From IMG/VR virus record IMGVR_UViG_3300029060_000343: a DNA stretch of 64,000 bases; one strand, given 5' to 3'. Below the pieces are notes generated by a model. That model saw only the letters and a list, made by a program, of their open reading frames with translations. It was not told the DNA's origin and ran no database searches. The position numbers and the translations under genes were made by a program. This document shows, piece by piece, positions 10,267 through 60,442 of this stretch. Source of the stretch: a virus. Numbering within the stretch: position 1 is the first letter of the stretch; every line of letters begins with the position of its first letter.

Positions 10267-11400
10267 TTATGCTGCTGTCAGTGTCCGCAGGCCTTCCTGC
10301 AGGATGTTGATGGCGGCATTCCTGTCCCTGCCCATCGTCAGACCACAGTCACATTTCATGGTGCGGACCCTGAGATCCTTCATTTCCGGATGCAGGGAAC
10401 CGCAGCAGTGACAGATCTGGGATGACGGAAACCATTTATCGACCTTGATGAGATACTTGTTTCTGTCGGCAAGCTTGTATTCGAGCATGGACAGAAACAT
10501 GCCATATCCGTTATCCAGGGTAGCTTTACCGTTCCCGAAACCTTTGTTTGCCATGGCACGCATATTTAAGGATTCCACGCATACGACATCATACCGGTTG
10601 GCTATCCCGGTAGAGATCTTATGCAGGTTATCCAGACGCTGATTGGCAATGTGTTTGTGGATCCTGTTGATCTTACGGAGCTGCTTTATGTAATTACTGG
10701 ATTTCACTTCATTCTTACGGGAACCCTGCATGCGTGACAGCCGGCGCTGCGCCCTGGCAAGCTTCCTGCTGCTCTCGCGGTAGTATTTATGATTCGTGCC
10801 AACGTTGCCGTTGTTGTCCACGTACAGCCCATCAGAGGCATAATCCAGTCCGATGGCGTTGGTTTTATCGGCAGTATAGGTATTTACAGGAGTTTCGAAT
10901 TCGAACAGGACGGAGACATAATACTTCCCGTCGGATTCCTGGGATACCGTGGCAGATTTGATGTTCCAGTCGTCTCCGGGCATACGATGGATGACAGCTT
11001 TTACTTTACCGGCCTTAGGCAGCCTGATAAAGCCGCCGTCCACGATAGCAACAGTACCCTTCTGGTTGTTGGTGGTATAAGACCTGCGGCTTCGCTTTGC
11101 GGACTTGAACTTAGGAAAACCAGTATTCTTCTTGTGCGACTTACTGAAACAGTTACGGAAGGCAGCCTGCAAATCCAACTGCTTGTTAGCAAGCGCAAGG
11201 CTGTCCACTTCTTTAAGATATGGATGATCCTTCTTGTATTTGGCAGGAGTGATAGCAGGGAATTTACCGGTAGTTTCATAGCCCTCAATCTTATCGGACA
11301 GCATGAGATTATAAACCTTCCGGCAGCATCCAAAGGTTTTTGCAAACAGGGCGCGTTGTTCAGTCGTAGGGTAGATCCGGTATCTGTAAGCATGGTTCAT
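10267..11400 (-). CDS. tnpB: TnpB (IS200/IS605 family OrfB, RuvC-like RNA-guided nuclease)
   Basis: Conserved OrfB N-terminus (YRYRIYPT), RuvC-I (GLDYA), RuvC-II (VESL), CHCCG...CDCG zinc finger, and RuvC-III (RDRNAAINI). Confidence 0.85.
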   Translation of the reverse strand: MNHAYRYRIYPTTEQRALFAKTFGCCRKVYNLMLSDKIEGYETTGKFPAITPAKYKKDHPYLKEVDSLALANKQLDLQAAFRNCFSKSHKKNTGFPKFKSAKRSRRSYTTNNQKGTVAIVDGGFIRLPKAGKVKAVIHRMPGDDWNIKSATVSQESDGKYYVSVLFEFETPVNTYTADKTNAIGLDYASDGLYVDNNGNVGTNHKYYRESSRKLARAQRRLSRMQGSRKNEVKSSNYIKQLRKINRIHKHIANQRLDNLHKISTGIANRYDVVCVESLNMRAMANKGFGNGKATLDNGYGMFLSMLEYKLADRNKYLIKVDKWFPSSQICHCCGSLHPEMKDLRVRTMKCDCGLTMGRDRNAAINILQEGLRTLTAA

Positions 11401-15092: not shown

Positions 15093-15893
15093 CTACGCCA
15101 AGTCGTGGTTTCCTATATCATGGCAGTAATCTTCCCACACAGAATAGACTTTATGGGAATACCGTTCATTAGAATGACAATTCGGTGCAATGATAATATC
15201 TGTCTTTTCGTATCCGGCTTCTTCCGTATCTGCGGATGCGTTTTTATCTCCATGATACCCAAACAGCCCAAATTCTTTTCCCTTCCACTCAAACGTGAAG
15301 AAATTATGTCCATCACTACGTAATAATTTAGCGCCCATGCCATAAAGCAGATCTTCATAGCTGTCTTTATAGTTTAAATTGTATCTGCCCATAAGATCTT
15401 CACATACAACCACGCCGATATCATCTGCTAAAATCATATCAACAAGTTCATATAACTTTTCCCCAGTAGACTCCCAAGATTTTGGAAGATTGATGCGTAA
15501 ATTAGGCACGTACTTTTTTGCAATCAATATCTGTTCTCTTCTGGCCTTATATTGTTCTTTAGAAGATATAGAGATTGCCATTTCTTCCAGTCCATTTTCC
15601 ACTAAAGCTTTTGTTAATTCTTCAGTTAATTTTGTACCATTTGTTACCAGACAAATTGTATTTACGTATTTATTCACTACTTCGAAATAATCTACGATAT
15701 TCGGTAAAAGCAAACTCTCTCCGCCCATAATGGTGGCTCTTTCCAGCATACCTACTTTTTTCATAATCTCTTCCATTTTTTCAATATCTAATATCTTTTC
15801 TCGCTTCTCCGGCTGAAAGCAAAAATAGCAGTTTTGATTACAATGAAAATTTGTGATAATTCGATACCGGAACACTCTATGATTATGTAACAT
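15093..15893 (-). CDS. radical SAM enzyme (viperin/MoaA/SPASM-core-like; no full SPASM Cys set)
   Basis: CNQNCYFCF (CxxxCxxC), GGESLL, and VTNGTKL...AISISS motifs. Start set at the ATG after the GGAGGAAAAT RBS. Confidence 0.65.
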   Translation of the reverse strand: MLHNHRVFRYRIITNFHCNQNCYFCFQPEKREKILDIEKMEEIMKKVGMLERATIMGGESLLLPNIVDYFEVVNKYVNTICLVTNGTKLTEELTKALVENGLEEMAISISSKEQYKARREQILIAKKYVPNLRINLPKSWESTGEKLYELVDMILADDIGVVVCEDLMGRYNLNYKDSYEDLLYGMGAKLLRSDGHNFFTFEWKGKEFGLFGYHGDKNASADTEEAGYEKTDIIIAPNCHSNERYSHKVYSVWEDYCHDIGNHDLA

Positions 15894-15906
15894 ATTTTCC
15901 TCCATA

Positions 15907-15930
15907 GAAAATGCCCCTGAATGGGGCATT
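15907..15930 (-). terminator. hairpin (attenuator/terminator) between the micro-ORF and the downstream radical SAM gene
   Basis: AAAATGCCCCTGAATGGGGCATTT, about 14 nt upstream of the radical SAM RBS. Confidence 0.5.
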
Positions 15931-16088: not shown

Positions 16089-16904
16089 TTACATCAAATT
16101 TCTTTTCTCGATAATACCAGATCCCATATGATTTTTCTCAGAAATCTCGTTCTCGTTAATAGGACTTAATTTTATAAAGAAATATCTAGGATCAAAATAT
16201 TTGGTCAAGATATTGATGTCAAAATCTTCATAGTCTACCAATGTCATATTGACAGTTGTTTTCAAATTACTATTTGTCCGAATCTGGCCCAGTTCTTCGA
16301 TAGACATCAGATTACTGATAGGAATTAAATTGTGTCGTCTTTCCTCATTAAGACTATGTAAGCTTACTTGTAACGTAATATTGTCTTTAATCCAGCTAAA
16401 ATCACTTCCCTGTAATCCAACTGTAGAGATATAATGATGCGTTCCTGGATATTTTTCGTCAATTATCTGAATGGCTTTTTTTACTTCTTCTATATTTAGG
16501 AACGGCTCTCCCATTCTGGTGTAATTGATTTTATGTTCCCAAGCATCTTCAAATCGATATTCCGGATTCTGTTTGATAATAAATTCCACCTGGGCTACAA
16601 TCTCTTCGGCTGTTAAGCAACGCCATCTTTTAAGTTTTCCGGTTGCGCAAAATTTACAATGCACAGGACAACCGCTCATACAACTAACACCAATCATCCA
16701 TCGATTGGTCCGGTCTCCAACTTCATATGTCTTCAGTGTGTTTTCATTGTTATTGATTGCGTCCTTTGTATAATTTGGTAAAAAAGTATCGGTGACTTCC
16801 AATGGATATCCATCCTCTGTTTCTAATGCATATACCTTTCCATTTGTAAAGGATCTGCTGCGTAATTCTTTTAACATAAGCACCTCCGTTTGTTTTTCTA
16901 CCAT
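16089..16904 (-). CDS. radical SAM enzyme, RlmN/Cfr-like (RNA methylating family), short form
   Basis: CPVHCKFCATG (CxxxCxxC followed by ATG, as in RlmN/Cfr) and RMGEPFLN (MGMGEPLLN-like). 271 aa, shorter than canonical RlmN. Motif at 16903-16919 upstream. Confidence 0.55.
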   Translation of the reverse strand: MVEKQTEVLMLKELRSRSFTNGKVYALETEDGYPLEVTDTFLPNYTKDAINNNENTLKTYEVGDRTNRWMIGVSCMSGCPVHCKFCATGKLKRWRCLTAEEIVAQVEFIIKQNPEYRFEDAWEHKINYTRMGEPFLNIEEVKKAIQIIDEKYPGTHHYISTVGLQGSDFSWIKDNITLQVSLHSLNEERRHNLIPISNLMSIEELGQIRTNSNLKTTVNMTLVDYEDFDINILTKYFDPRYFFIKLSPINENEISEKNHMGSGIIEKRNLM

Positions 16905-31153: not shown

Positions 31154-32764
31154 CTATTCAGTTACTTCCGTATAATCTTTCAACGTTTCCGATGTTTCTA
31201 CGGGATCCTTTTTCTCTGTTGTTTCTCTGTTATTTTTCTTCTGCAGTGCTCCTGTAAGCAGTGATGTCGGATCAATACCAGTAGATTCTTTGATACCATC
31301 AGAAACCTGCGTTACGGTAGTCATAATATCACCCGCAAGCTGGCTGGTATTTCCACCAAACATCTTTATGGAATCTACGTTCGTATATCCCTTAGCCACA
31401 GCCTCTGCGATCTTAGGCAGCTGCTCGAAGTATACCTTCAAAGTATCCAGTTCCATCTGCTGTTTTGCAGCGTCACCATACTGTTTCATAGCTTCCGCCT
31501 TCTTTAAGATACCGGCTGCCTCTGCCTCTGCCTTTGCCTGAATTGCTTCTGCTTCTGCCTTACCTTTTGCTGCTACGGCTGCTGCCTCGGCAAGACCTGC
31601 TGCCTTAACTGCCTCTGCTGCCTGTTCCTTAGCGAATCTCTCTGCCTCGGACTTTGCTTTCTCAGCTTCTGCCTGTCTCTGGATCTCGAAGAGTTCTGCC
31701 TCTGCTCTCTTCTGTCTCTCATACTGCTCAGCATCTGCCTTCTGCTGTGCTGCGTATTTATTCGCTTCTGCAGTCTTCTTGACCTCAGCTTCCAGAGCTT
31801 TCTCCTTGATGGATACTTCTCTCTCCTTTAATTCCAGTTCCTTCTCCTGACGGGCCAGGTTCGCGTTCGCTGTAGTGATCTCCACGGTCTTACGCTGTTC
31901 CTCTTCTTGAATCTTATATGCTGCATCTGCCTCAGCCTTCTTAATATCAGACTCTTTCTTCAGTTCTGCTTTCTTAATAGCCAGTTCGGTCTGCTTCTGT
32001 GCAATCTCAGTATCCGCAATGACCTGTGCATCATTGGCATCCTTCTGTGCCTGTGCTCTTGCAATCGCCACATCTCTGTCTGCCTGTGCCTTTGCAACGG
32101 AAGCATCCTTCTGAATCTGAGACATGTTATCCTGTCCCAAAGCAGTGATCAGGTTGTTCTCATCCTCAATCTTCTGGATATTACAGGACTCGATCCAGAT
32201 ACCCAGGGCATTCATATCCTTCTGTGCCTTTGCCTGTACCTCGTCACCGAAGGTCTTACGGTCATTACACAGTTCCTTTAAACACTGGGTACCGATAATC
32301 TCACGCATATTACCCTGTAAGGAATCGGTCAGCGCATCGCGAATTCCCTGTTCTTTCATATTCAGGAAGTTCTTCATAGCAGCCTGTGCCATTTCATGAG
32401 TAACTCTCTTATTGGAATCTGCCCCGGGAAGTAACTGCCCATTTTTATCAATGGTAACATCCTTTTCTGTAAGGACTCTTACTTTTGCCACCGCATCGAT
32501 ATCTACACCAATGAAATCCTTAGTCGGAATATATCCATTTGTCTTAATGTCGATACTGATCTGCTTTAACATCAATTCATCCTTCTTTTCCAAGAAAGGA
32601 ATCTTAATACCTGCACGACCGATTAATACCTTCGGCTCCTTTTTGAGACCGGAAATAATGTATGCCTTATCGGGAGACGCTTTTACATACCCGGACATCA
32701 AAATTCCAATCATCGCTACCGCAATAACTACTGCTATAATAACTCCTACACTAACACCACTCAT
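31154..32764 (-). CDS. flotillin-like SPFH/band-7 protein
   Basis: N-terminal TM segment; SPFH core followed by a long Ala/Glu/Lys-rich coiled coil (EA repeats); start at the ATG after the AAAGGAGAAAA RBS. Confidence 0.7.
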   Translation of the reverse strand: MSGVSVGVIIAVVIAVAMIGILMSGYVKASPDKAYIISGLKKEPKVLIGRAGIKIPFLEKKDELMLKQISIDIKTNGYIPTKDFIGVDIDAVAKVRVLTEKDVTIDKNGQLLPGADSNKRVTHEMAQAAMKNFLNMKEQGIRDALTDSLQGNMREIIGTQCLKELCNDRKTFGDEVQAKAQKDMNALGIWIESCNIQKIEDENNLITALGQDNMSQIQKDASVAKAQADRDVAIARAQAQKDANDAQVIADTEIAQKQTELAIKKAELKKESDIKKAEADAAYKIQEEEQRKTVEITTANANLARQEKELELKEREVSIKEKALEAEVKKTAEANKYAAQQKADAEQYERQKRAEAELFEIQRQAEAEKAKSEAERFAKEQAAEAVKAAGLAEAAAVAAKGKAEAEAIQAKAEAEAAGILKKAEAMKQYGDAAKQQMELDTLKVYFEQLPKIAEAVAKGYTNVDSIKMFGGNTSQLAGDIMTTVTQVSDGIKESTGIDPTSLLTGALQKKNNRETTEKKDPVETSETLKDYTEVTE

Positions 32765-32825
32765 TTTAAATTTTCTCCTTTTATGTATTTTTGTGCTTCT
32801 TTTAGAATTGCATTTTTGTTTTGAT

Positions 32826-33012
32826 TCCTGACCGCTCTGCACAGTCTAAAAACTGGCAGGTTCCAGGTACATGACAGCATCACTTGACAATTCCTGCAAC
32901 AGATCCGCTTTCTGACCGTAAAAATCAGAAACCAGATTTTTTTATGCAGAACAGTGTTTGTTATAGCTGCCGTACCTTAACTGGAATTTCGTCGCAAACA
33001 CTCCGATGATCG
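32826..33012. repeat. solo copy (~185 bp, ~85% identical) of the right end of the 58.7-60.5 kb IS element (MITE-like remnant or standalone omega-RNA locus)
   Basis: Direct alignment of 32832-33010 with 58748-58930 (CTCTGCACAGTCTAAA(A/G)ACTGGCAGGTTCC...TTTTTTATGCA(G/A)AACAGTGTTTGTTATAGCTGCCGTACCT...). Confidence 0.6.
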
Positions 33013-37992: not shown

Positions 37993-38015
37993 TGGAATAT
38001 TATTATAAATATTAA

Positions 38016-38106
38016 CGCCGTGGCGGGGAGTCGAACCCCGAAACCGGATTTTACTCCGAGATGGTGGATTAGCAATCCACTGCTGTACCATTTGAGCCAC
38101 CACGGC
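38016..38106 (-). tRNA. tRNA-Ser(GCU), class II
   Basis: Cloverleaf by eye: T-arm GGGGUUCGACUCCCC; anticodon loop UUGCUAA; long variable arm. Confidence 0.7.
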
Positions 38107-38119
38107 AAGAAATATAAAC

Positions 38120-38190
38120 GGCCCATTGCGGATTCGAACCGCAGTCCCTGGGGTCAAGGCCCAGTGCATTGACCGCTATGCTAATGGGCT
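38120..38190 (-). tRNA. tRNA-Gln(UUG) (anticodon loop CCUUGAC, atypical C33)
   Basis: T-arm GCGGUUCGAAUCCGC; anticodon stem CUGGG/CCCAG. Confidence 0.5.
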
Positions 38191-38197
38191 AAAAAAC

Positions 38198-38287
38198 GCC
38201 AGTGACAGGACTCGAACCTGTACGTCGACATAAATGCCGGCTTGCCTGTGTTCGAAGCAGGTGCTGTACCACTTGAGCCACACTGGC
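38198..38287 (-). tRNA. tRNA-Ser(CGA), class II
   Basis: T-arm CAGGUUCGAGUCCUG; loop UUCGAAC; long variable arm. Confidence 0.65.
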
Positions 38288-38289
38288 AG

Positions 38290-38380
38290 ACTCCCGTGCC
38301 CCGCAGATTGGCAGGTTTATCACGAATACCGCAGCCGTTAGTCAATTTCGACTGAAATACCGTTTAGCACGGGCTTTTTG
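38290..38380 (-). other. ~90-nt tRNA-sized structured element without canonical T-loop (tRNA pseudogene or unknown small RNA)
   Basis: Terminal complementarity GCCCGUG...CACGGG enclosing internal hairpins; no GTTCGAATC-type T-loop. Confidence 0.3.
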
Positions 38381-38437
38381 CATATACACTGAATAGAAAC
38401 AGGTGACTAATCTGCTTCGCACAGCTTAAATGCAAAG

Positions 38438-38511
38438 ACATCGGTGGGATTCGAACCCACGATAAAACCTGTTTTGCAGACAGGCGCCTTAGACCACTCG
38501 ACCACGATGCC
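38438..38511 (-). tRNA. tRNA-Cys(GCA)
   Basis: T-arm GUGGGUUCGAAUCCCAC; anticodon loop CUGCAAA. Confidence 0.7.
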
Positions 38512-38518
38512 ATAATAC

Positions 38519-38592
38519 TACGGACAGCGGGACTCGAACCCGCAAAGTACGATTTAGAAGACCGTTGTTTTATCCAATTAGACTATGCCCGT
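38519..38592 (-). tRNA. tRNA-Arg(UCU)
   Basis: T-arm GCGGGUUCGAGUCCCGC; anticodon loop CUUCUAA. Confidence 0.7.
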
Positions 38593-38598
38593 ATAAAA

Positions 38599-38671
38599 TA
38601 TCCCCAGGCAGATTTGAACTGCCGTTCCCTGCGTGAGAGGCAGATGTCCTTGACCGCTAGACTATGGGGAC
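38599..38671 (-). tRNA. tRNA-Glu(CUC)
   Basis: 5' GUCCCC Glu-like acceptor; T-arm GGCAGUUCAAAUCUGCC; loop CUCUCAC. Confidence 0.65.
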
Positions 38672-38675
38672 TTAA

Positions 38676-38767
38676 CGCTGTGACAGGGATTCGAACCCTG
38701 AAAGCGGGAATCTCACCCGACATGCCGGATTTCAAGGCCGGTGCTGTACCAGTTGAGCCATCACAGC
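38676..38767 (-). tRNA. tRNA-Ser(UGA), class II
   Basis: T-arm CAGGGUUCGAAUCCCUG; loop CUUGAAA; long variable arm. Confidence 0.65.
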
Positions 38768-38772
38768 AAAAG

Positions 38773-38863
38773 CGGAACGGGAGGGACTTGAACCCTCAAA
38801 GCGTGGATTGACACGACATGTCCGGCTTCCAACCGGGTCCTGTACCAATTGAGGCACCGCTCC
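38773..38863 (-). tRNA. tRNA-Ser(GGA), class II
   Basis: T-arm GAGGGUUCAAGUCCCUC; loop UUGGAAG; long variable arm. Confidence 0.6.
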
Positions 38864-38891
38864 ATATCAGGCTCTTTAACAAGAGCCTTTA

Positions 38892-39413
38892 TCATTTTGA
38901 AATTTTATCAGCAATTCCGGATGCAACATAAGACTCCGGCTTAACCTTTGCCTCAAAACCCATTGAAGTGACCCAGCCTATGAGCTCAGGAATCAATTCC
39001 TTCGTCTTACCATGTTCAGAATAACCAGCATCAATATGAATAGAAAACTCTGTGTTCAAAAATACGTCTTCATATTCCGTTGTCTCAAATATTGTAATAA
39101 GCTGTTCTGCTATTTCAAGTGAATCGCCGGTTTCCACACGAAGTTTTGTTCTTACATCTGAAATACGGTCACGTGCGTTAATCTTATAAAAGAAAATACC
39201 GCCGTGTCCTTCACAGATCACAGCAATTACACTTACTTCTTTCGTATAATCAAAATTCTGCGAATCCGTACCGATCGTAATATGAATACCGGTACCATAC
39301 TCTTTCATTCTTTCATAGTAAGCCTTTATATATTTTGGAATTTCCTGTATCATAAGCTCACCGTGTGATGGCGAAATCCAGTTTTCACTGTAATGTTTCT
39401 TACTCATGATCAC
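38892..39413 (-). CDS. hypothetical protein embedded in the tRNA array (possible RNase-H-like/DUF458-type fold)
   Basis: ORF track; TIGTDSQ segment; flanked by tRNAs on both sides. Confidence 0.45.
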   Translation of the reverse strand: MIMSKKHYSENWISPSHGELMIQEIPKYIKAYYERMKEYGTGIHITIGTDSQNFDYTKEVSVIAVICEGHGGIFFYKINARDRISDVRTKLRVETGDSLEIAEQLITIFETTEYEDVFLNTEFSIHIDAGYSEHGKTKELIPELIGWVTSMGFEAKVKPESYVASGIADKISK

Positions 39414-39437
39414 GTTGCTCCTTTCTGATATTTTTTA

Positions 39438-39513
39438 GCAGGCGCGGAGGGATTCGAACCCCCAGACAATCACGGTTTTGGAGACCGTTGCTGTACCAGT
39501 TGAGCCACGCACC
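39438..39513 (-). tRNA. tRNA-Trp(CCA)
   Basis: T-arm GGGGGUUCGAAUCCCUC; loop CUCCAAA. Confidence 0.7.
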
Positions 39514-39755
39514 CATAATAATGAACAATAAAAAACAGCCTCTTTTGATAAACTTTTTATCAGAAGATGCTGCAGAGAATGCCGGTAATTTTGTTATGCG
39601 AAAATTTTTGCATCAACAAATAAAGCAGTACATCTTCTTATCATGTCTACTCTCTGACCACGAACTATTGGATTGTCTGCTACATCTGTTTACGTTATGC
39701 ATAATTATTTACTCCTTCCTGCAATTTTTCTGTATCTGCATAAAAACTGGAAAAA

Positions 39756-39829
39756 TACGCCAAATCGGATTCGAACCGATACTAACAGGGGCTTAAACCC
39801 TGTGCCTCTGCCGATTGGGCTATTGGCGC
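39756..39829 (-). tRNA. tRNA with anticodon UAA (Leu codon UUA), class I length with Leu-type D-arm
   Basis: Loop UUUAAGC (G37); 3-bp D-stem with long D-loop; 5-nt variable region. Confidence 0.55.
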
Positions 39830-39833
39830 ATAA

Positions 39834-39906
39834 TGGGTATGACAGGCCATGATCCTGCAACCTTCGGCTTAAGAGGCCGATACTCTGCCACTTGAGTTAC
39901 ATACCC
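39834..39906 (-). tRNA. tRNA-Lys(CUU), noncanonical T-loop
   Basis: Perfect acceptor GGGUAUG/CAUACCC; loop CUCUUAA; T-loop AUCAUGG. Confidence 0.6.
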
Positions 39907-39928
39907 GTGGATACACATGCGGTATCAG

Positions 39929-40012
39929 TGCACCCGACGAGACTCGAACTCGCATGGAAAGTAATTCCGCCAGATTAAAAGTCTGGTGCCATACCAATTA
40001 GGCGACGGATGC
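39929..40012 (-). tRNA. class-II-shaped tRNA with anticodon UUU (Lys codon AAA)
   Basis: Loop CUUUUAA; extra arm GGAAUUACUUUCC; 3-bp D-stem. Confidence 0.5.
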
Positions 40013-40091
40013 ATACATTATAACTTTGATAATCGCTTGCATAACTGTTTTCGTTTCATGATTATTTCTCCTTTATTATAAAGATTTTCAA

Positions 40092-40163
40092 TCCCAAGGA
40101 CAGGATTTGAACCTGCGTTTGCCGGGTATGAACCGGCCGTACTCGCCGCTATACTACCCTGGA
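40092..40163 (-). tRNA. tRNA-Met(CAU), elongator or Ile2-type
   Basis: Loop UUCAUAC; T-arm GCAGGUUCAAAUCCUGU. Confidence 0.65.
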
Positions 40164-40164
40164 G

Positions 40165-40241
40165 TAGCGGGTCCAGGAGTCGAAGCCTGGTATCGCAAGG
40201 GTTATGAGCCCTGCATGGTAAATCCGTTCCACTCACCCGCA
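40165..40241 (-). tRNA. initiator tRNA-fMet(CAU)
   Basis: GGGCUCAUAACCC anticodon arm with three G-C pairs, identical to the bacterial initiator; 1:72 mismatch. Confidence 0.65.
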
Positions 40242-40243
40242 AA

Positions 40244-40316
40244 TGCTGATAACAGGACTCGAACCTGTAACCCCATGCTTGTAAGGCATATGCTCTCCCA
40301 GTTGAGCTACATCAGC
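40244..40316 (-). tRNA. tRNA-Val(UAC)
   Basis: Canonical cloverleaf; loop CUUACAA; T-arm CAGGUUCGAGUCCUG. Confidence 0.75.
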
Positions 40317-40320
40317 ATAG

Positions 40321-40391
40321 TTGTGGTGGACAGAGTCGGACTGTCGTTAACCGCTCATCAGACGGTCTTTCTACCATTGAAATACACCACA
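40321..40391 (-). tRNA. tRNA-Ile(GAU), noncanonical T-loop
   Basis: Loop CUGAUGA; T-loop UCCGACU. Confidence 0.55.
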
Positions 40392-40404
40392 ATATTTTTT
40401 ATGA

Positions 40405-40478
40405 AGCCTGTGACAAGATTTGAACTTGCAACCCTCTACTTACGAGATAGACGCTCTGCCAATTAGAGCTACACAGGC
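40405..40478 (-). tRNA. tRNA-Thr(CGU)
   Basis: Loop CUCGUAA; T-arm CAAGUUCAAAUCUUG. Confidence 0.7.
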
Positions 40479-40487
40479 ATTTTACAG

Positions 40488-40559
40488 TGCTCCCATGGCG
40501 ACTCGAACGCCAACTACAGAGTTCGTAGCCCTGCCGTCTATCCATTAGCGTATGAGAGC
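40488..40559 (-). tRNA. tRNA-Arg(ACG)
   Basis: Loop CUACGAA; T-arm GGCGUUCGAGUCGCC. Confidence 0.7.
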
Positions 40560-40563
40560 ATAG

Positions 40564-40634
40564 CAGGCGGTAACCGAATCGAACGGGTGTCTCACGGCTC
40601 AGAACCGCACGGTTTACCTCTAACCTAACCGCCT
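40564..40634 (-). tRNA. tRNA-Gln(CUG)
   Basis: Loop UUCUGAG; T-loop UUCGAUU. Confidence 0.6.
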
Positions 40635-40636
40635 AT

Positions 40637-40709
40637 AAGCCGCAGAAGGGACTCGAACCCTTAATCCCCTGATTACAAAGCAGGTGCATTACCATTGTGC
40701 TACAGCGGC
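40637..40709 (-). tRNA. tRNA-Thr(UGU)
   Basis: Loop UUUGUAA; T-arm AGGGUUCGAGUCCCU. Confidence 0.65.
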
Positions 40710-40723
40710 ATATTTAATTTCAG

Positions 40724-40807
40724 GGAGACCAGTGGGGCTCGAACCCACGTAGGAATTGCTTCCGCAGAGCCACAATCTGCTGCCTAACCAACTCGGCCAC
40801 AGCCTCC
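40724..40807 (-). tRNA. tRNA-His(GUG) with G-1:C73 and an unusual extra arm
   Basis: Loop UUGUGGC; 8-bp acceptor including G-1; extra arm GGAAGCAAUUCC. Confidence 0.5.
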
Positions 40808-40811
40808 ATAG

Positions 40812-40883
40812 CTGGAATGGCGGGACTTGAACCCACAACCTACCGGTTAACAGCCGGTCGCTCTACCATTGAGCTACAAACCA
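40812..40883 (-). tRNA. tRNA-Asn(GUU)-like copy with weakened acceptor stem (possible pseudo-tRNA)
   Basis: Body nearly identical to the tRNA-Asn at 41637..41709; two U·U mismatches in the acceptor. Confidence 0.4.
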
Positions 40884-40900
40884 ATACTATATTATCTAAA

Positions 40901-40974
40901 TGGGGCGAGTGAGAATCGAACTCACGACACACGGCTTATAAGGCCGCTGCTCTTGACCCCTGAGCTACCACCCC
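40901..40974 (-). tRNA. tRNA-Ile(UAU)
   Basis: Loop CUUAUAA; T-arm GUGAGUUCGAUUCUCAC. Confidence 0.6.
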
Positions 40975-41060
40975 TTATGAAATAAGGTTCGGTATAGATA
41001 TTCGTCTCATAGTCTTGTTTCTCCTTTATATTTGTTATACTCTTTCTACAGGAAAGAAAA

Positions 41061-41134
41061 TGTACCAGAAGGGATTCGAACCCATAGAAAACCGGATTTG
41101 AGCCGGCCCCGTCTGCCAGTTGCGGCACTGATGC
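41061..41134 (-). tRNA. tRNA with anticodon CAA (Leu codon UUG), class I length with Leu-type D-arm
   Basis: Loop CUCAAAU; D-arm CCGCAACUGGCAGACGG; short variable region. Confidence 0.5.
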
Positions 41135-41140
41135 ATACAG

Positions 41141-41213
41141 TCGGAATGACAGGTCTCGAACCTGCAGCCTCATGATCCCAAATCACGCGCGCTACCAATT
41201 GCGCCACATCCCG
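41141..41213 (-). tRNA. tRNA-Pro(UGG)
   Basis: 5' CGGGAUG; loop UUUGGGA; T-arm GCAGGUUCGAGACCUGU. Confidence 0.7.
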
Positions 41214-41219
41214 ATACAG

Positions 41220-41293
41220 TGCCCATGAGTGGTTTCGAACCACCAACCTCTGCCATCTGAAGACAGTTCGTCTGCCAATTGCGCCACATGGAC
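41220..41293 (-). tRNA. tRNA with anticodon CAG (Leu codon CUG), class I length
   Basis: Loop UUCAGAU; T-arm GGUGGUUCGAAACCACU; 5-nt variable region. Confidence 0.5.
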
Positions 41294-41300
41294 ATCACAG

Positions 41301-41378
41301 TACCTCGAATGGGAGTCGAACCCATAAACAATCACAGAGTCCTTAGCTCTGCCGCTTTGCCAATTTGCGTACCGAGGC
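41301..41378 (-). tRNA. tRNA with anticodon AAG (Leu codon CUU), short variable region
   Basis: Loop CUAAGGA; Leu-type D-arm CGCAAAUUGGCAAAGCG; T-arm UGGGUUCGACUCCCA. Confidence 0.5.
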
Positions 41379-41392
41379 ATATTTATTTTAAG

Positions 41393-41476
41393 TGGGCGAA
41401 GAAGGACTTGAACCTTCAGAAGCCGAAGCCAACTGTTTTACAGACAGTACCGCTGCCAATTACGGGATATTCGCCC
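41393..41476 (-). tRNA. tRNA-Tyr(GUA), class II
   Basis: Loop CUGUAAA; long variable arm; T-arm GAAGGUUCAAGUCCUUC. Confidence 0.7.
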
Positions 41477-41481
41477 AAAAG

Positions 41482-41569
41482 TCGGCAGGGTGAGAGTCGA
41501 ACTCACAATGTTTACCACGAGGGTCACAGTTTTACAGACTGCTTGCTTCAGCCTTTTGCATACCTGCCG
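41482..41569 (-). tRNA. tRNA-Tyr(GUA), second copy with divergent sequence, class II
   Basis: Loop CUGUAAA; perfect acceptor CGGCAGG/CCUGCCG; long variable arm. Confidence 0.65.
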
Positions 41570-41636
41570 TTAATAATATTCAGTTCCCATATAATAATAG
41601 TCTGGCATATCAGTCATCTCCTTTACATTTCTTAAG

Positions 41637-41709
41637 CTCTCACAGCAGGACTTGAACCTGCAACATCCCGGTTAACAGCCGGACGCTCTACCGATTGAGC
41701 TATGCGAGA
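41637..41709 (-). tRNA. tRNA-Asn(GUU)
   Basis: Loop CUGUUAA; T-arm GCAGGUUCAAGUCCUGC. Confidence 0.7.
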
Positions 41710-41713
41710 ATAG

Positions 41714-41786
41714 AGTGCGTGAACGGATTCGAACCGTCCCTTTCTGCTTGGAAGGCAGATGTGCTATCCGCTGACACTACACACAC
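41714..41786 (-). tRNA. tRNA-Gly(UCC)
   Basis: Loop CUUCCAA; T-arm GACGGUUCGAAUCCGUU. Confidence 0.65.
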
Positions 41787-41791
41787 ATAAG

Positions 41792-41867
41792 CGACTCCAA
41801 CGGGATTTGAACCCGTGTTATTCCTGCGTGACAGGCAGGTGCCATAAACCAGCTAGGCGATGGAGCC
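41792..41867 (-). tRNA. tRNA-Asp(GUC)
   Basis: Loop CUGUCAC; T-arm CACGGGUUCAAAUCCCGU. Confidence 0.65.
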
Positions 41868-41871
41868 ATAA

Positions 41872-41943
41872 TGCCTCGTTTCGGTTACGATCCGATCCTC
41901 TGGAGCTTCAATCCAGCGCTTCTACCAAGTTAGCTTACGAGGC
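41872..41943 (-). tRNA. tRNA-Phe(GAA), noncanonical T-loop
   Basis: Perfect acceptor GCCUCGU/ACGAGGC; loop UUGAAGC; T-loop AUCGUAA. Confidence 0.6.
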
Positions 41944-42050
41944 TCGGTAAAGTCAGTATCGTCTTTACCGCCATAAAATCGTTTATCCATATTTTTTCAA
42001 TGTCCTTTCGTATATTGTATAAATCCTGAGTGCCTGGTTCAGAATTTAAG

Positions 42051-42123
42051 AGCAGATGACGGAACTCGAATCCGCATTTCTGACTTGGCAAGCCAGTGTA
42101 TTAGCCAGCTATACGACATCTGC
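42051..42123 (-). tRNA. tRNA-Gly(GCC)
   Basis: Perfect acceptor GCAGAUG/CAUCUGC; loop UUGCCAA; T-arm GCGGAUUCGAGUUCCGU. Confidence 0.7.
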
Positions 42124-42190
42124 ATGTGGGACAAACGGAGTGCCTGGTTCCATAAGTCCCTGTTTTGTTGTATTACGGATATTTCCGTAG

Positions 42191-42263
42191 CGACCGATGC
42201 GGGATTCGAACCCACGTCTCGGGAGTGAAATTCCCGTGACCTCGTCCTCTAGTCGAATCGGCC
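42191..42263 (-). tRNA. tRNA-Glu(UUC)
   Basis: Perfect acceptor GGCCGAU/AUCGGUC; loop AUUUCAC; T-arm GUGGGUUCGAAUCCCGC. Confidence 0.65.
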
Positions 42264-42270
42264 AAATCAA

Positions 42271-42347
42271 TGGAGCATATGAGAATCGAACCCATCTGTT
42301 TTTCCTGTTTGCAAAACAGGCGACCACCCCTTGCAGTCCCATACCCC
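42271..42347 (-). tRNA. tRNA-Ala(UGC) with G3:U70
   Basis: 5' GGGGUAU with G3·U70 wobble; loop UUUGCAA; T-arm AUGGGUUCGAUUCUCAU. Confidence 0.6.
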
Positions 42348-42416
42348 ATATAATTAAAAAGACCACTAAACTAAGACAATTTCTTAATCCAGTGGTCATG
42401 ATTTCATATTTCCAAT

Positions 42417-43629: not shown

Positions 43630-44598
43630 ATGGAAAAGAAAAATGAACCGAAATTATATCATATCGAAGAAATGGAAGAATATCTCAATTCAATATTACC
43701 GGATTCTTCGAACTCTTTTAAATACCTTTATCTTAAAAAGCAGATTATGGCACATTTTTCTTTAGCAAGAAATGGCTATACTAATCGCATTTCCTCTTAT
43801 ACTGAAGTCAAAAGAGAAGCTTTAGATAAGCTTTGTTGTAAAATAGCTGAAGAATATGGAACAACTGAAAAAACATGGGCTCAACTGGCGAAGGAAAATG
43901 ACATTAATATCTCGACAGTTCAACATTATATTAAAAAATACGACCAAGAGCATCCAGGCTATTTTTCTCAAAAACCTAATAGAATAAATGAACATGAAAT
44001 TATTGAAATGTATTTTGAGAAAAAATATACAGCCAATGAAATAGCGGAAAAATTAGGGTGTTCCGCTTCTACCGTGTGGCGCGCAATCCGCAGTTATAGA
44101 AATATACATAAGGAGTTGGAGACGGACTGTAGTTTAACAAGAAATTTTTTAAACAAAGAAGATATAGAGATTGCCTGTGCATATCTCAATACGAACAGCA
44201 CTTATAAAGAAGTGGCTGCAAAGTATTCATGTAGTATTTCGACTGTCCAGTATTGCATTAAAAAATACAAGGCCGCTACGGCGAAAATGGAAGAAATTTC
44301 TCCCACTGTAGATAATAGTAATTTTGTGCGCTTGTATTTTGTAAAAAATGTTTCCATCGAGCAATTGACGGCCTATGGAAAATATTCCAGGGAAGATATA
44401 GAAAATGGTATAAAAGAATATTTGAGCGAATTATGTAAAAAATATACGGCTGATGAATTGATTGCGGAGCAGATTATTGAGGATTACATTAATGGTGAAA
44501 AAGCACACTCTTTAGCTAAAAAATACCATAAAGCAACAACAACCGTAACGGAGATCATAGAATTATATAAAAATTCCACACAAAAAGAACCGGGATAA
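43630..44598 (+). CDS. multi-HTH DNA-binding protein (4-5 tandem IS30/sigma-r4-like helix-turn-helix units)
   Basis: Repeats ISTVQHYIKKY, CSASTVWRAIRSY, CSISTVQYCIKKYK and TTTVTEIIELYK, each preceded by a helix; AAGAGGGATAAT-ATG RBS. Confidence 0.55.
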   Translation: MEKKNEPKLYHIEEMEEYLNSILPDSSNSFKYLYLKKQIMAHFSLARNGYTNRISSYTEVKREALDKLCCKIAEEYGTTEKTWAQLAKENDINISTVQHYIKKYDQEHPGYFSQKPNRINEHEIIEMYFEKKYTANEIAEKLGCSASTVWRAIRSYRNIHKELETDCSLTRNFLNKEDIEIACAYLNTNSTYKEVAAKYSCSISTVQYCIKKYKAATAKMEEISPTVDNSNFVRLYFVKNVSIEQLTAYGKYSREDIENGIKEYLSELCKKYTADELIAEQIIEDYINGEKAHSLAKKYHKATTTVTEIIELYKNSTQKEPG

Positions 44599-50427: not shown

Positions 50428-50456
50428 TTGACAAATAGAACATATGTTTGTATAGT
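50428..50456 (+). promoter_or_regulatory. sigma-A-type promoter TTGACA-N17-TATAGT for 50477..50755
   Basis: Read directly from sequence. Confidence 0.55.
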
Positions 50457-50476
50457 ATTTTCGGAGGGATTTTATA

Positions 50477-50755: not shown

Positions 50756-50757
50756 GA

Positions 50758-51009
50758 CTATGCCGCACATATTCCGACATACCCACAACCATGTATAACT
50801 TTATATCTGTCATCTTTCTCAAAACAGAAATCCAGACTTTCTGCGGGACATTCTTCCGGATCAATCCATCCGGTCCGGTTTGCTCGCATGATCGTCCCAT
50901 CTTCGCATCGCCAGATCACATCTCCTTTTTCGAAAGTTGTATCCGTGCTGCTTTTCGTCACCTTATAAACAACATTTTTCTCCATTACCGTTTCTCCTCT
51001 GCGGTCCAC
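50758..51009 (-). CDS. hypothetical protein (83 aa)
   Basis: ORF track. Confidence 0.45.
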   Translation of the reverse strand: MDRRGETVMEKNVVYKVTKSSTDTTFEKGDVIWRCEDGTIMRANRTGWIDPEECPAESLDFCFEKDDRYKVIHGCGYVGICAA

Positions 51010-51206
51010 GGCACAACGATACCTAATAATTTCAAATAAGCGTACACTTCTTTGTATCCACCTACCCCGAACATGCGGATCTTACTTAAGTTTCCGTAGT
51101 CGATAATATCGCCCACGGTTTTGATTCCGGCACGACGAAGAACGCTATAAGTTCGGTGGGAAAACTTCTCCGATCCAAGTAGCATATACAAAGGCGTGGC
51201 CACCAA
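50985..51206 (-). CDS. RNA polymerase alpha C-terminal-domain-like (HhH) small protein; TTG start or frameshifted continuation of 51145..51417
   Basis: FSHRTYSVLRRAGIKTVGDIIDYGNLSKIRMFGVGGYKEVYAYL matches the alpha-CTD helix-hairpin-helix pattern (SVRSxNCLKxAGIxTVGDL...NFGKKSLxEI). Confidence 0.45.
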   Translation of the reverse strand: MVATPLYMLLGSEKFSHRTYSVLRRAGIKTVGDIIDYGNLSKIRMFGVGGYKEVYAYLKLLGIVVPWTAEEKR

Positions 51207-51417
51207 TGCTCCTGTCCGCGGTGGTGATCATGATCGGCGTGTCTTTCCTCATCTTTTTGATCCGCAGCATTTTCGATGCCGCATCGTAAAGTTCCTGCAA
51301 TGTTAAAATATGCGGCTCTACGGGCGAACTATTTTTATCCATAACGAATCTCCTTCTAATACTATATATGAATGATTTTACGGGAAACGAAAATACCTGC
51401 ACAGAAAAAGCCGACAA
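51145..51417 (-). CDS. hypothetical protein (90 aa); overlaps and may be the frameshifted N-terminal part of the alpha-CTD-like ORF
   Basis: 62-bp overlap in a different frame with 50985..51206. Confidence 0.35.
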   Translation of the reverse strand: MSAFSVQVFSFPVKSFIYSIRRRFVMDKNSSPVEPHILTLQELYDAASKMLRIKKMRKDTPIMITTADRSIGGHAFVYATWIGEVFPPNL

Positions 51418-51432
51418 TATGCCGGCTTTTTC

Positions 51433-51738
51433 TTAAATCTCGCTGTCATCGATATTTCGCAGTTCTTCCGCTATCTTCAGCAAGCAATCGCTGTCGATGT
51501 ATGAAATAACCGCCACGGTATTGCGATATCCGCTTAACTTACCATACTCCCAATAGGCTCCCCATTCGTCGTTGTAATCTTCTTTTCCGGGGCTTGTCAC
51601 TTTATATTCAATTTTTCTTTTTTGCAGGAACGGCTCCAGTTTATTCAGCGCTACTCCGGGAAGAAGCAGGTGCTGCTTTTCGTTTCGGTATGTAATTTCG
51701 GGATTGTACATTACATTACCTTTCTCCCACCGAAGCAA
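51433..51738 (-). CDS. hypothetical protein (101 aa), paralog of 51711..52037
   Basis: MYNPEITY...PGVALNKLEPF aligns with MYNPQIVY...PGVILNKLIPF in the next gene. Confidence 0.5.
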   Translation of the reverse strand: MLRWEKGNVMYNPEITYRNEKQHLLLPGVALNKLEPFLQKRKIEYKVTSPGKEDYNDEWGAYWEYGKLSGYRNTVAVISYIDSDCLLKIAEELRNIDDSEI

Positions 51739-52037
51739 GGATCATTGGCGCTTACATGAAGCAGGTCTTCTGCGATCTTATGCAGGCATTCAGTATCGAC
51801 TTTTGCTACTACGGCGGCGACACCATTGATTCTAGGTCTGCCGCGGTATACGCACCCACCGGGCCAGCCGTCTTCGAATTCACTTTGGGGAACCGTTCTA
51901 TATTCAATTTTATTTTCTTCCATAAAAGGAATCAGTTTATTTAAAATTACTCCCGGAACAACGGTAACTTCTTCTTTTTCAGAATATACAATTTGTGGAT
52001 TATACATTTCTGCCTCCTTATTCATTTGATGAATCAA
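51711..52037 (-). CDS. hypothetical protein (108 aa), paralog of 51433..51738
   Basis: Tandem duplicate. Confidence 0.5.
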   Translation of the reverse strand: MIHQMNKEAEMYNPQIVYSEKEEVTVVPGVILNKLIPFMEENKIEYRTVPQSEFEDGWPGGCVYRGRPRINGVAAVVAKVDTECLHKIAEDLLHVSANDPCFGGRKVM

Positions 52038-52063
52038 TTATAATACAAATATTAACGACAGTC

Positions 52064-54039: not shown

Positions 54040-55092
54040 CTAATTAATAACTTTATGGACAACAGCTGCCTGACATTCCGTTCCCGATACATATACCGGT
54101 GGAATCCAGTGCAGGATCAGTTTTCTTTCACCGTTCCTCGATCCGGTCCAGTAATGATGCCAGTGTGCCCTCCTTGTGTGTGCCGGTAAAGAACGTTTTA
54201 CACAAATGTTCAGTTCGGATGTTTGCCCTTTACAATTATCTGAAGATTTCTTTTGTTTCTTCTGCGAACGAATTTCTGATCCGTACCGATAACCACATTC
54301 CCATTGACGGATTTCAGAAAACCTATTTTTGATACGTCCACTGGGATGATATGTATTTTTCGTAACTGAAGATTCCTGTATCTCTGCATTGTCTGCGCAC
54401 AGATATAATAAAGCATTCAACATATAGAAACAGAATTCCGTCCAATCCACGTTTCGGTCTGATTCGTCGCATGAAAAATCATTTTTGTCGAAAATGAAAA
54501 TTCCATCTTCATTATCGTTTGGAACCAGTGCGGCTTTGCCAAACATAACCCTGCCATCTTCCTTTACGCGTTCCGTGTACAAAAGATATCCATTTTCTTT
54601 CCTGATTATATTTATGAATGCTCCGTGGAAATTTTTCCGGAAAATGCCATCCTCAGAAAATTCCAGATAAAATGTCTGATACGGCAGCCGGTCCAGTATT
54701 CTTACAGGTAATTTGATTTCTTCCGAATCTGCCAAAGCAAGCTCAAGTTCCGAATCAAACTTATATACCTGTTTATTTGCGGCCCATTTATTCGGCATTA
54801 GATACGAAGAAAATAATTCTGCGGCTAACGCTCTGTCTTCTTCTGGATCTTCTGGTATCTCGCCATTTCCAGTCATCATTTTGTACATTTGAGAACGGCC
54901 TGATAATAAAATATCATTGATGTATTTGAATTTTCCGTTATAAGACGGATTCATGAAATCAGTGTCGTACCAGATAAACAAAAGGACATCGTCGATATTT
55001 AAAAGTGTCTGTTTGATCGCCCTGGTCCATTTATTATTATAAGGATGACTGTTTAAATCCATTATTTTTGCAAAATATAATGGTGTATACAT
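54040..55092 (-). CDS. hypothetical protein (350 aa)
   Basis: ORF track. Confidence 0.5.
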   Translation of the reverse strand: MYTPLYFAKIMDLNSHPYNNKWTRAIKQTLLNIDDVLLFIWYDTDFMNPSYNGKFKYINDILLSGRSQMYKMMTGNGEIPEDPEEDRALAAELFSSYLMPNKWAANKQVYKFDSELELALADSEEIKLPVRILDRLPYQTFYLEFSEDGIFRKNFHGAFINIIRKENGYLLYTERVKEDGRVMFGKAALVPNDNEDGIFIFDKNDFSCDESDRNVDWTEFCFYMLNALLYLCADNAEIQESSVTKNTYHPSGRIKNRFSEIRQWECGYRYGSEIRSQKKQKKSSDNCKGQTSELNICVKRSLPAHTRRAHWHHYWTGSRNGERKLILHWIPPVYVSGTECQAAVVHKVIN

Positions 55093-58975: not shown

Positions 58976-60442
58976 TTAACAGTGACATTTATGGTATTCG
59001 TAACTTCGCAATCCGAAGCTAGAAGGATATTTCTTATTCTCTGCAAGGAGCGCGTTCATGCAGGCATCATGTGTTATCAGGAACATGGGGAAGGTGTCGA
59101 TACATTTCTGTCTGTCGGCGGCCGTGCCGGTGTCGTTACTGTTCTTTAGCAGGAACGCCGAATACAGATCTCTCTGTATGTAGTGGCCGCCAACGAAACT
59201 TCCCCGGCAAGAAAGCTTCTTTCGGACGTAGTCATCCGTTACATGGTTGTACTGACTGGCGCGGAAGTTTACGGTATCGATCTTAATTAACTCCCCGCCG
59301 CCGGAAGCGAGCCGGCTTTCCAGAATCTTTAGGAACGCTGCCGGTGCGTGGTTGCCTATGGATTTTCCGAACCGCTTCCTGCTCCGGAACCGGCCATCGG
59401 CTTTCTTCGTGGCAGACTTCGATCTCCGTGCAAGACCATGGAAAAACATCTTTTCCACGTACGCGGTATCTGCCTTCGAGGCAATTTCATTCGCAAGCCG
59501 GTGGTGGCCGGTATTTATCGCATCGGCATGCCGGCGTTCCATGGACTTCTTGCGGAACTGAAGCTTCCTGTAGTGCTTCGAACGAATCCACTTCCTTGCA
59601 CCCTTGCGGACAGTGCCGTCCGGCAGATAATTATCCGGATTCGTGATGCGTCTGCTCCGGTCCATGGCTCTCTGAGTCCGCCTGATTTGCGCAGAATGAT
59701 CTTTTGCATCGGAACTGAGTACCGTCAGTTTACAGGAATCCTTGGTCACGATAGCCGCGGTAGAGATCCCGATATCCAGTCCGGCGGTTCCATGACAGAC
59801 CGGATGCTTTACCGGGGGCTTTCCTTCCAGAACCAGCTGCAAGTAGTAGTGGTATTTCGTACCCACGGGCTTCCTCTGGATACGGCAGTACTTTACACGG
59901 GATTTCAGAGCTTTCCGGTCATAATCCGTCCGGATCTGCGGCTGGATCACCTGCCCGCGCCAATAAAGCCGGCCGTCTTTGAACCGCATGCCGGAAGTAT
60001 TTTTCTTACCTTCCATGCTTTCGAATTCATCGTATTTCCTGAAATGAATACATTTCCCGTTATCAAACAGATACTTCTCCACGGACCGCCATACGGAAGA
60101 AGCGATCTTCTGGGCTACATCAGAGTCAATGGATTTCTTGTATCTGTGCTGCTGTACAGCAACATACGTATGCAGCTGGTATTCACTGAGTCCATAACCT
60201 CGGCGGATGTCAGCAAGCTCCTGATTGATGCGGTTCTTATCAACTTTCGATAGACCAGACTCCTTCCTCGCAGCCAGATGATCTCGATACTCCGGATCCT
60301 GTATTAACTTCCGGAGTTGCTTCCGGCAGTGCCGCACAAGGACGTTGTAGATCTGCTGTCCACACCAGAAAGTATGAGAAAGCCACCGGTCCTGCTCGAG
60401 AGAAGTATTCAGTTTTAATGTCAAACCGAATGATTCTGTCAT
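58976..60442 (-). CDS. tnpB: TnpB-like RuvC-fold protein (IS605/IS1341 family) with degenerate zinc finger
   Basis: RuvC-I (GLDIGIS), RuvC-II region (AYVEKMF) and RuvC-III-like (QRDLYSAFLLKN); the usual CxxC...CxxC module keeps only one Cys. Confidence 0.65.
   Translation of the reverse strand: MTESFGLTLKLNTSLEQDRWLSHTFWCGQQIYNVLVRHCRKQLRKLIQDPEYRDHLAARKESGLSKVDKNRINQELADIRRGYGLSEYQLHTYVAVQQHRYKKSIDSDVAQKIASSVWRSVEKYLFDNGKCIHFRKYDEFESMEGKKNTSGMRFKDGRLYWRGQVIQPQIRTDYDRKALKSRVKYCRIQRKPVGTKYHYYLQLVLEGKPPVKHPVCHGTAGLDIGISTAAIVTKDSCKLTVLSSDAKDHSAQIRRTQRAMDRSRRITNPDNYLPDGTVRKGARKWIRSKHYRKLQFRKKSMERRHADAINTGHHRLANEIASKADTAYVEKMFFHGLARRSKSATKKADGRFRSRKRFGKSIGNHAPAAFLKILESRLASGGGELIKIDTVNFRASQYNHVTDDYVRKKLSCRGSFVGGHYIQRDLYSAFLLKNSNDTGTAADRQKCIDTFPMFLITHDACMNALLAENKKYPSSFGLRSYEYHKCHC

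Follow-up and report, generated by a model that had tools for sequence, protein, structure and literature searches.

Within the window, by which we mean the whole 64-kb (64,000-nucleotide) stretch of viral DNA that was analysed, two overlapping minus-strand reading frames very probably mark the scar of a deletion within an operon of three genes and represent the remnant of two genes, not one frameshifted gene. The sequence-only reading had described them as a single RNA polymerase alpha-CTD-like protein encoded across a frame discontinuity. This description did not hold, since relatives carry the two segments in two separate genes. Among the origins it had offered for the discontinuity (sequencing frameshift, programmed frameshift or pseudogene), only the pseudogene comes close. 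The ancestral operon would have comprised gene 1 (151 aa, with a C-terminal zinc ribbon), gene 2 (181 aa) and gene 3 (75 aa), with gene 2 in its ancestral form combining an N-terminal sigma-70 region-4-type HTH with a C-terminal alpha-CTD-like domain. A 624-nt deletion is proposed to have removed gene 1 codons 60 to 151 and gene 2 codons 1 to 122, so that the zinc ribbon and the sigma-4 half would have been lost. Ribosomes loading at the strong gene 1 start would then produce a truncated peptide of 65 aa, terminated by a TAG that lies 19 nt inside the alpha-CTD segment, and this segment would be left as an overlapping +1 ORF with weak or no translation. Its retention may be due to the chance position of the deletion endpoint and to the presence of the gene 3 ribosome-binding site in its 3′ end. 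We infer that both remnants are without function.

All features of the locus lie on the minus strand. A terminator-like hairpin (AAAAAGCCGGCAUAUUGUCGGCUUUUU, 51403..51433) closes the preceding gene and sits 5′ of the small operon. Its RNA fold has an energy of -20.1 kcal/mol (z of -4.09 versus shuffles), and the hairpin is kept in L005, L012 and L021. It was found by folding; a simple promoter/terminator scan missed it and yielded no signal specific to the operon. The upstream frame, ORF-A (51145..51342), encodes 65 aa from its realistic start, ATG 51342, to a TAG stop at 51147..51145. Direct reading of the sequence places a Shine-Dalgarno sequence, GAAGGAG (51350..51356), 7 nt 5′ of this ATG, and this motif is kept in relatives. 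The TTG at 51417, from which the frame can also be listed (51145..51417), is not credible as a start because it lies inside the terminator region. The downstream frame, ORF-B (50985..51203), encodes 72 aa from GTG 51203 to a TAA stop at 50987..50985, and the predicted peptide begins MATPLYMLLGSEK; its product is identical to the public-assembly gene calls P0001 and P0047. An AGGAG within ORF-A (51209..51213), 5 nt 5′ of GTG 51203, is a possible ribosome-binding site for ORF-B. On reading the sequence, the two overlapping minus-strand frames and their 62-nt overlap (51145..51206), with ORF-B at +1 relative to ORF-A, proved to have been correctly placed at the outset. The accompanying remark that the second frame lacks a good start was right in that a frame opening at TTG 51206 exists (73 aa, 50985..51206), but it overlooked GTG 51203 with its AGGAG, as well as an ATG at 51185, which has no Shine-Dalgarno sequence. 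Gene 3 (50758..50985; 75 aa) follows, and is also called in L001, L013 and L018. Its ATG overlaps the ORF-B stop codon (TAATG, 50985), its Shine-Dalgarno sequence GAGGAG sits within the 3′ end of ORF-B, and it has no significant Pfam match.

The two-gene origin of these frames is evident from their relatives. Codons 1 to 59 of ORF-A correspond to the N-terminus of zinc-ribbon proteins of 142 to 151 aa, the full-length gene 1 product being 151 aa, and are 85 to 96% identical to residues 1 to 59 of P0016, P0002, P0006 and P0011. Past residue 59, P0016, P0011 and P0006 read ...ATWIGEGFDWESDQIRI... and end in a C-terminal CPAC...CKYC zinc ribbon; gene 1 relatives continue with IGEGFDWESDQ...CPACENKI...CKYCGQKI, and P0016 has Zn_ribbon Pfam matches. 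ORF-A itself has no Pfam match, and a tblastn search of the window with P0016 aligned residues 1 to 61 only. The last six codons of ORF-A (VFPPNL) and its TAG are gene 2 sequence read out of frame, and an ...IFPPNL* ending is also found in P0052, a frameshifted gene 2 allele. ORF-B in turn corresponds to residues 123 to 181 of the 181-aa gene 2 protein (P0004, P0036 and P0035), while its first 14 codons are gene 1 sequence in the wrong frame. A tblastn search with P0036 showed that the window covers residues 116 to 181 only, at 89% identity. The N-terminal 110 residues of P0004, P0036 and P0035 are unrelated to ORF-A. When a conceptual fusion of ORF-A and ORF-B was used as the query against a collection of 5.8 billion proteins, no protein joining the two segments at this point was found, and tblastn detected neither of the lost parts, the sigma-4 half and the zinc ribbon, anywhere in the 64-kb window.

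Both genes are intact and adjacent in L004, L012 to L017 and L021, which are human-gut contigs that carry them at the same syntenic position. Upstream lie a gene of 229 aa, replaced in several contigs by a 283-aa RNAse_A_bac gene, and then two paralogues of 98 and 92 aa; downstream lie the 75-aa gene, a convergent 92-aa gene and genes of 231, 222 and 687 aa. The gene 1/gene 2 pair is also retained in L024, in which gene 2 is only 45% identical, and because this distant relative keeps the pair we infer that the long, two-gene form is the ancestral state. The sequence-only reading had held that its proposal would fall if orthologues showed two separate small genes with no similarity to the alpha-CTD. 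Two separate genes were indeed found in the orthologues; the alpha-CTD similarity, as described below, is nevertheless real.

MAFFT and BLAST alignments of the DNA with L004, L005, L012 and L021 revealed a single clean gap, at window position 51165/51164. The gap is 624 nt long and corresponds to L012 9743..10366, and its polarity, as a deletion and not an insertion, was set by outgroup comparison. Of gene 1, the first 59 codons and 1 further nt remain, the last base being at 51165 (...TGGATCGGAGAAG), and gene 2 restarts in a different frame at codon F123, from 51164 (TTTTCCCACCGA...). The deletion thus takes in the 3′ 60% of the zinc-ribbon gene and, in the sigma-region-4/alpha-CTD gene, the 5′ two thirds. 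The two genes differ in frame, and a loss of 624 nt, which is divisible by three, leaves their remnants out of frame as well. No microhomology was seen at the junction, in contrast to the L018 allele described below. About 10 to 11 contigs from several samples share this exact junction; they range in size from 2 kb to over 200 kb, with ERR525804, SRR6680650 and SRR29321833 among the runs that contain it. L001 and L022 (ENA ERZ918708, run ERR525804, human gut) match the window at 100% identity across 20 kb and could be the contigs from which it came. L002 (SRR6680650) and L003 (SRR29321833) share the junction, differ at 8 positions and 1 position elsewhere, respectively, and have another gene upstream of the paralogues than the window does. 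No variation was found among the deletion-lineage copies in 50985..51342.

The similarity of ORF-B to the alpha-CTD, claimed from the outset, was upheld by profile, sequence and structure comparisons. ORF-B matches the Pfam family RNA_pol_A_CTD (PF03118) with 27.2 bits (gathering score, 23.8; E value, 3.1e-6), with residues 15 to 59 aligned to positions 20 to 66 of the 67-position profile. This alpha-CTD-like helix-hairpin-helix domain occupies 51030..51164 (minus strand), so that the match starts at the exact point of the discontinuity. The best matches of ORF-B among PDB sequences were RpoA C-terminal domains throughout, and phmmer returned RpoA chains only, such as 8i23_A (E value, 1.7e-3) and Bacillus subtilis 1z3e_B. 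For the 72-aa product, AlphaFold modelling with an alignment of relatives as input (pLDDT, 86.5; pTM, 0.73) predicts the compact helical helix-hairpin-helix fold of the alpha-CTD, and the PDB entries that Foldseek ranked closest to the model were nearly all alpha-CTD chains (TMq, 0.71 to 0.74; rmsd, 2.0 to 2.7 Å), 3gfk_B, 9dvt_A and 9a4w_A among them. A PHROGs search with ORF-A and ORF-B gave no significant match.

ORF-B nevertheless departs from a true alpha subunit in several respects. Its identity to alpha-CTDs of the Bacillus/Clostridia type is about 30 to 35% across some 55 residues, and its predicted fold superposes on 3gfk_B, 1z3e_B and 9dvt_A. However, the alpha N-terminal dimerisation/assembly domain and the linker of RpoA are absent from the 72-aa product, which therefore is no polymerase subunit, and NCBIfam rpoA models match it only over their C-terminal 70 or so positions, far under the cut-off. 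Ancestral gene 2, for its part, carries sigma region 4 in place of an alpha N-terminal domain. The domain is also incomplete: profile positions 1 to 19 are missing, the match beginning at position 20 as opposed to position 9 in intact P0004, and the deletion, by removing gene 2 residues up to E122, took away the N-terminal segment before helix 1. In addition, one loop is 2 residues shorter than in RpoA, and the second hairpin reads FGVGG where RpoA has NLGKKS, so that the K298/S299 DNA contacts would be absent. In an alignment with RpoA CTDs, ORF-B keeps the Arg of SVRSYN and the Gly of NLGRKS, which we take to be R265 and G296 in Escherichia coli numbering. The residues of the E. coli UP-element-binding surface that contact DNA are, we assume, R265, N268, G296, K298 and S299. 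Because the Arg and Gly are kept but N268 is replaced by S, and K298 and S299 each by G, UP-element-type DNA binding by ORF-B is uncertain, and its canonical GVG hairpin could, judging from the sequence, still bind the DNA backbone.

These features bear on a different reading of the same deletion, in which ORF-B is now expressed from GTG 51203 as a new, stand-alone 72-aa protein that acts on host transcription, for instance by a putative titration of alpha-CTD-binding factors or occupation of A+T-rich UP-like DNA. We regard this as unlikely. In its favour, GTG 51203 arose from a C-to-T change unique to the deletion lineage (GGTGG versus GGCGG): the undeleted relatives L004, L005, L011, L012 and L021, the last being the closest on that side, all have GCG. 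The 5-nt spacing to AGGAG is within the range seen in the window, where most of the 35 genes with AGGAG or GGAGG have spacings of 6 to 7 nt and 3 have a spacing of 5 nt, and public gene callers place the ORF-B start at this GTG (P0001 and P0047). ORF-B is moreover intact in all copies and open across nearly the whole alpha-CTD fold, it is predicted to fold alone (pLDDT, 86.5), and the Arg aligned to the conserved Arg of SVRSYN is retained. However, the C-to-T change is synonymous in ORF-A, and over 180 nt the window differs from L021 at about five positions, this one included, so the change can be neutral. GTG 51203 is also internal to the well-initiated ORF-A, and initiation inside a well-initiated ORF is normally suppressed. 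The loss of the N-terminal segment (profile positions 9 to 19) and the replacements at three positions equivalent to DNA-contact residues also weigh against this reading, and the deletion-lineage copies are invariant over 50985..51342. The alpha-CTD is dispensable, since the commonest allele in the population destroys that domain. Functional expression of ORF-B is accordingly improbable in our estimation, and we would give slightly less credence still to the specific scenario in which a GCG-to-GTG change at 51203, downstream of an AGGAG that was already there, followed the deletion and created a free alpha-CTD that competes with the host alpha-CTD for activators or A+T-rich upstream DNA. If true, this would be a case of domain liberation caught in the act, yielding a transcription decoy from a gut phage. 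The sequence-only reading had itself suggested a free alpha-CTD decoy, and the analysis neither supported nor refuted that idea.

A programmed +1 ribosomal frameshift, by which the gene 1 N-terminus and the alpha-CTD would be made as one protein of about 120 aa, would account for the 62-nt overlap and the +1 position of the alpha-CTD frame, and P0045, in which another lineage has the gene 1 N-terminus joined in frame to gene 2, indicates that such fusions are possible. However, a deletion between two unrelated genes accounts for the arrangement. The overlap codons (51206..51145: ATT GGT GGC CAC GCC TTT GTA TAT GCT ACT TGG ATC GGA GAA GTT TTC CCA CCG AAC TTA TAG), read by eye, contain no P-site codon able to re-pair at +1 beside a stop codon or a slow or rare codon in 51145..51206. 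The sole heptamer resembling X XXY YYZ, U UUC CCA, would direct a -1 shift into the third frame and not into the alpha-CTD frame. A shift site is conserved in no relative, and the relatives hold two complete, separate genes. Given the two ancestral genes behind the frames and the lack of a +1 shift-prone site in the overlap, the programmed frameshift put forward earlier is very unlikely. A sequencing or assembly artefact, in which an indel error or mis-join created the frame break, has nothing in its favour beyond the break itself and is extremely improbable, with a sequencing frameshift excluded, because the junction is identical in contigs from separate runs that were built with different assemblers (MEGAHIT-style k127 contigs at ENA, and Logan contigs), partly with another gene upstream and with differences elsewhere (L002 and L003), and the difference from relatives is 624 nt and not 1 to 2 nt. 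ORF-A and ORF-B should therefore be annotated neither as one gene in need of frameshift repair nor as a case of programmed frameshifting.

The deletion is one of several lesions at an unstable locus, at which at least four further structural alleles were found; all contig counts given here are lower bounds. Intact operons occur on at least 37 contigs for P0036 and at least 53 for P0035, and on others too. The commonest allele, represented by P0049 on at least 277 contigs and P0050 on at least 33 (L005 to L010), carries a 143-nt deletion that cuts the alpha-CTD after GVGGYK and leads into an out-of-frame run into gene 3. P0045 (L018 to L020) joins gene 1 codons 1 to 33 in frame to gene 2 over about 12 nt of similarity, and in L011 the boundary between gene 1 and gene 2 is swapped for about 200 nt of unrelated DNA. 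Frameshifts were found in both genes, some of them at A-runs (P0003, P0005, P0012, P0029, P0052, P0053 and the gene 1 start of L004). Judged from these sequences, the operon is clearly dispensable in many lineages, and decay thus fits the window remnant better than refined function does. The locus resembles deletion-generated remnants in phage accessory regions, both in the clean deletion across two adjacent genes with out-of-frame leftovers and in the many alternative lesions at the same place in the population; the sole notable difference is the coincidence that the piece left behind is a near-complete domain that can still be recognised and has a possible new start codon. Anyone studying the gene 2 family could use the natural alleles (intact, sigma-4-only-like, alpha-CTD-only and chimeric) as a ready-made domain-deletion set.

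The intact family to which gene 2 belongs is missing from the window and is a more interesting object than the remnant. A HMMER search with P0004 against 1.84 billion cluster representatives (a 50%-identity library) returned 177 matches at an E value of 1e-3 or below, suggesting that the family is fairly widespread. Full-length relatives of about 180 to 260 aa aligned over both halves (alignment A1). Among the sampled members of this alignment, RNA_pol_A_CTD was found in 25 of 25 (best E value, 6.7e-32) and Sigma70_r4 in 20 of 25. NCBIfam was concordant, with matches to the rpoA C-terminal region and to the RpoD/ECF C-terminal region, and in PHROGs the N-terminal halves fell among sigma factors and transcriptional regulators of phages. 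When modelled with AlphaFold, P0004 (pLDDT, 89.4; pTM, 0.76) matched the alpha-CTD structure 1z3e_B with a TM score of 0.80, and the sigma region 4 structures of SigL (3hug), SigF (8jzt), SigR (5fgm) and SigE (2h27) with an rmsd of 1.1 to 1.6 Å over about 55 residues. The domain matches and the model together therefore identify gene 2 as a small fusion of the two promoter-upstream-reading modules of RNA polymerase. ORF-B is 89% identical to the C-terminal 59 to 66 residues of P0036, and the window copy shares with these proteins (P0004, P0036, P0062 and remote A1 relatives) the C-terminal alpha-CTD and the orthologous syntenic position; the difference is that the sigma-70 region 4 HTH and the linker (residues 1 to 122), found in the relatives, are deleted in the window.

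Within the literature that was searched, no relevant publication on sigma-4/alpha-CTD fusions or phage PF03118 proteins was found. Gene 2 proteins may act, for example, by promoter occlusion or by competition at the beta-flap. There is a conceptual likeness to phage factors that disturb the promoter contacts of sigma region 4 or the alpha-CTD, namely gp67 of phage G1 (PMC3694059) and AsiA, MotA and alpha-CTD modification in phage T4 (PMC2988021): by analogy, the gene 2 modules, which read the -35 and UP regions, could plausibly redirect or compete with host RNA polymerase. The likeness goes no further, as gp67, AsiA and MotA have no sequence or fold kinship with the gene 2 family, and the window copy is missing half of the gene 2 protein.

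The element that carries the locus is probably a large uncultivated human-gut phage, the alternative being another large mobile element of gut Firmicutes. No match was found among GenBank phages by megablast of window positions 49000-54000 or tblastn of P0004, in IMG/VR scans with P0036 and the 687-aa neighbour, or in a scan of GTDB genomes with P0036. In the GTDB scan with the 687-aa neighbour, the sole match was a 2-kb contig in a Lachnospiraceae MAG, which is weak host evidence, and an association with Lachnospiraceae is possible. Related contigs reach up to 293 kb, and two are of 1.0 and 1.9 Mb. The genes of the window lie almost all on the minus strand. Many ORFs match PHROG families of unknown function; the window also has an array of 35 tRNA genes and encodes TnpB-type transposases, a DNA methyltransferase, a DHH phosphoesterase, two radical-SAM proteins and a flotillin-like protein.

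The commonest allele at the operon locus in public data carries a 143-nt deletion (related contigs L005-L010; one instance is L005 5422..6090, set against window 50908..51050). This deletion removes the last alpha-CTD helix together with the start of the 75-aa gene, and the product of the allele is an out-of-frame fusion of 217-222 aa (protein P0049, 277 contigs). A different product, the 214-aa protein P0045, is encoded at L018 3001..3645 and also in contigs L019 and L020. It is an in-frame chimera in which codons 1-33 of gene 1, the zinc-ribbon gene, are joined to nearly the whole of gene 2, and it originated from a deletion of ~325 nt across ~12 nt of similarity (GAAGAAAG...).

The intact gene 2 proteins P0004 and P0036, together with P0062 and the relatives of P0004 in alignment A1, form a family of small proteins in which sigma-70 region 4 is fused to an alpha-CTD-like domain; related loci L004, L012-L017, L021, and L024 encode such fusions. 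The family has 177 representatives (E <= 1e-3), some relatives possess 3-6 alpha-CTD repeats, and no account of it turned up in the searchable literature.

On its upstream side, the operon is adjoined by tandem paralogous small genes of 98 and 92 aa (window 51711..52007 and 51433..51711, minus strand; 37% identity, E 1e-21). In the matching interval of L012-type contigs, gene calling gives no second copy. The gene neighbourhood of the window was also found within megabase-sized contigs, namely L017 (ENA ERZ28750085 contig_2482), which is 1.04 Mb long, and one of 1.87 Mb that is listed for P0036; there, IS110 insertions are present in it. The element may be integrated into a far larger replicon or form a section of one; alternatively, these megabase assemblies may be chimeric.

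Elsewhere in the window, 35 densely packed tRNA genes occupy 38015..42348 on the minus strand, across which G+C rises to 45-48%. This array serves nearly every amino acid (4 Ser, 4 Leu, 2 Tyr, 2 Asn, Ile-tat, and others), and includes no suppressor tRNA. One of the few plus-strand genes (43630..44598) is kept in every related contig and encodes a protein of 322 aa in which HTH and Sigma70_r4-type motifs recur (HTH_23, E 1.4e-15; Sigma70_r4, E 8e-10). In the public gene table, the precomputed Pfam annotation of the 350-aa gene at 54040..55092 (minus strand) is PF26125 AcrVA2-like; however, our own Pfam scan gave no match for this gene at E <= 0.001. Two minus-strand genes match PHROG 506 "transposase" (10267..11400, E 2.6e-103; 58976..60442, E 1.1e-41) and are probably IS200/IS605-type TnpB-like genes. 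The 488-aa gene of this pair lies at another position and in the other orientation in contig L012. Finally, two adjoining radical-SAM proteins (15093..15929 and 16089..16904) and a 562-aa SPFH/flotillin-like protein (31154..32842), all encoded on the minus strand, are unusual cargo for a phage-like element.
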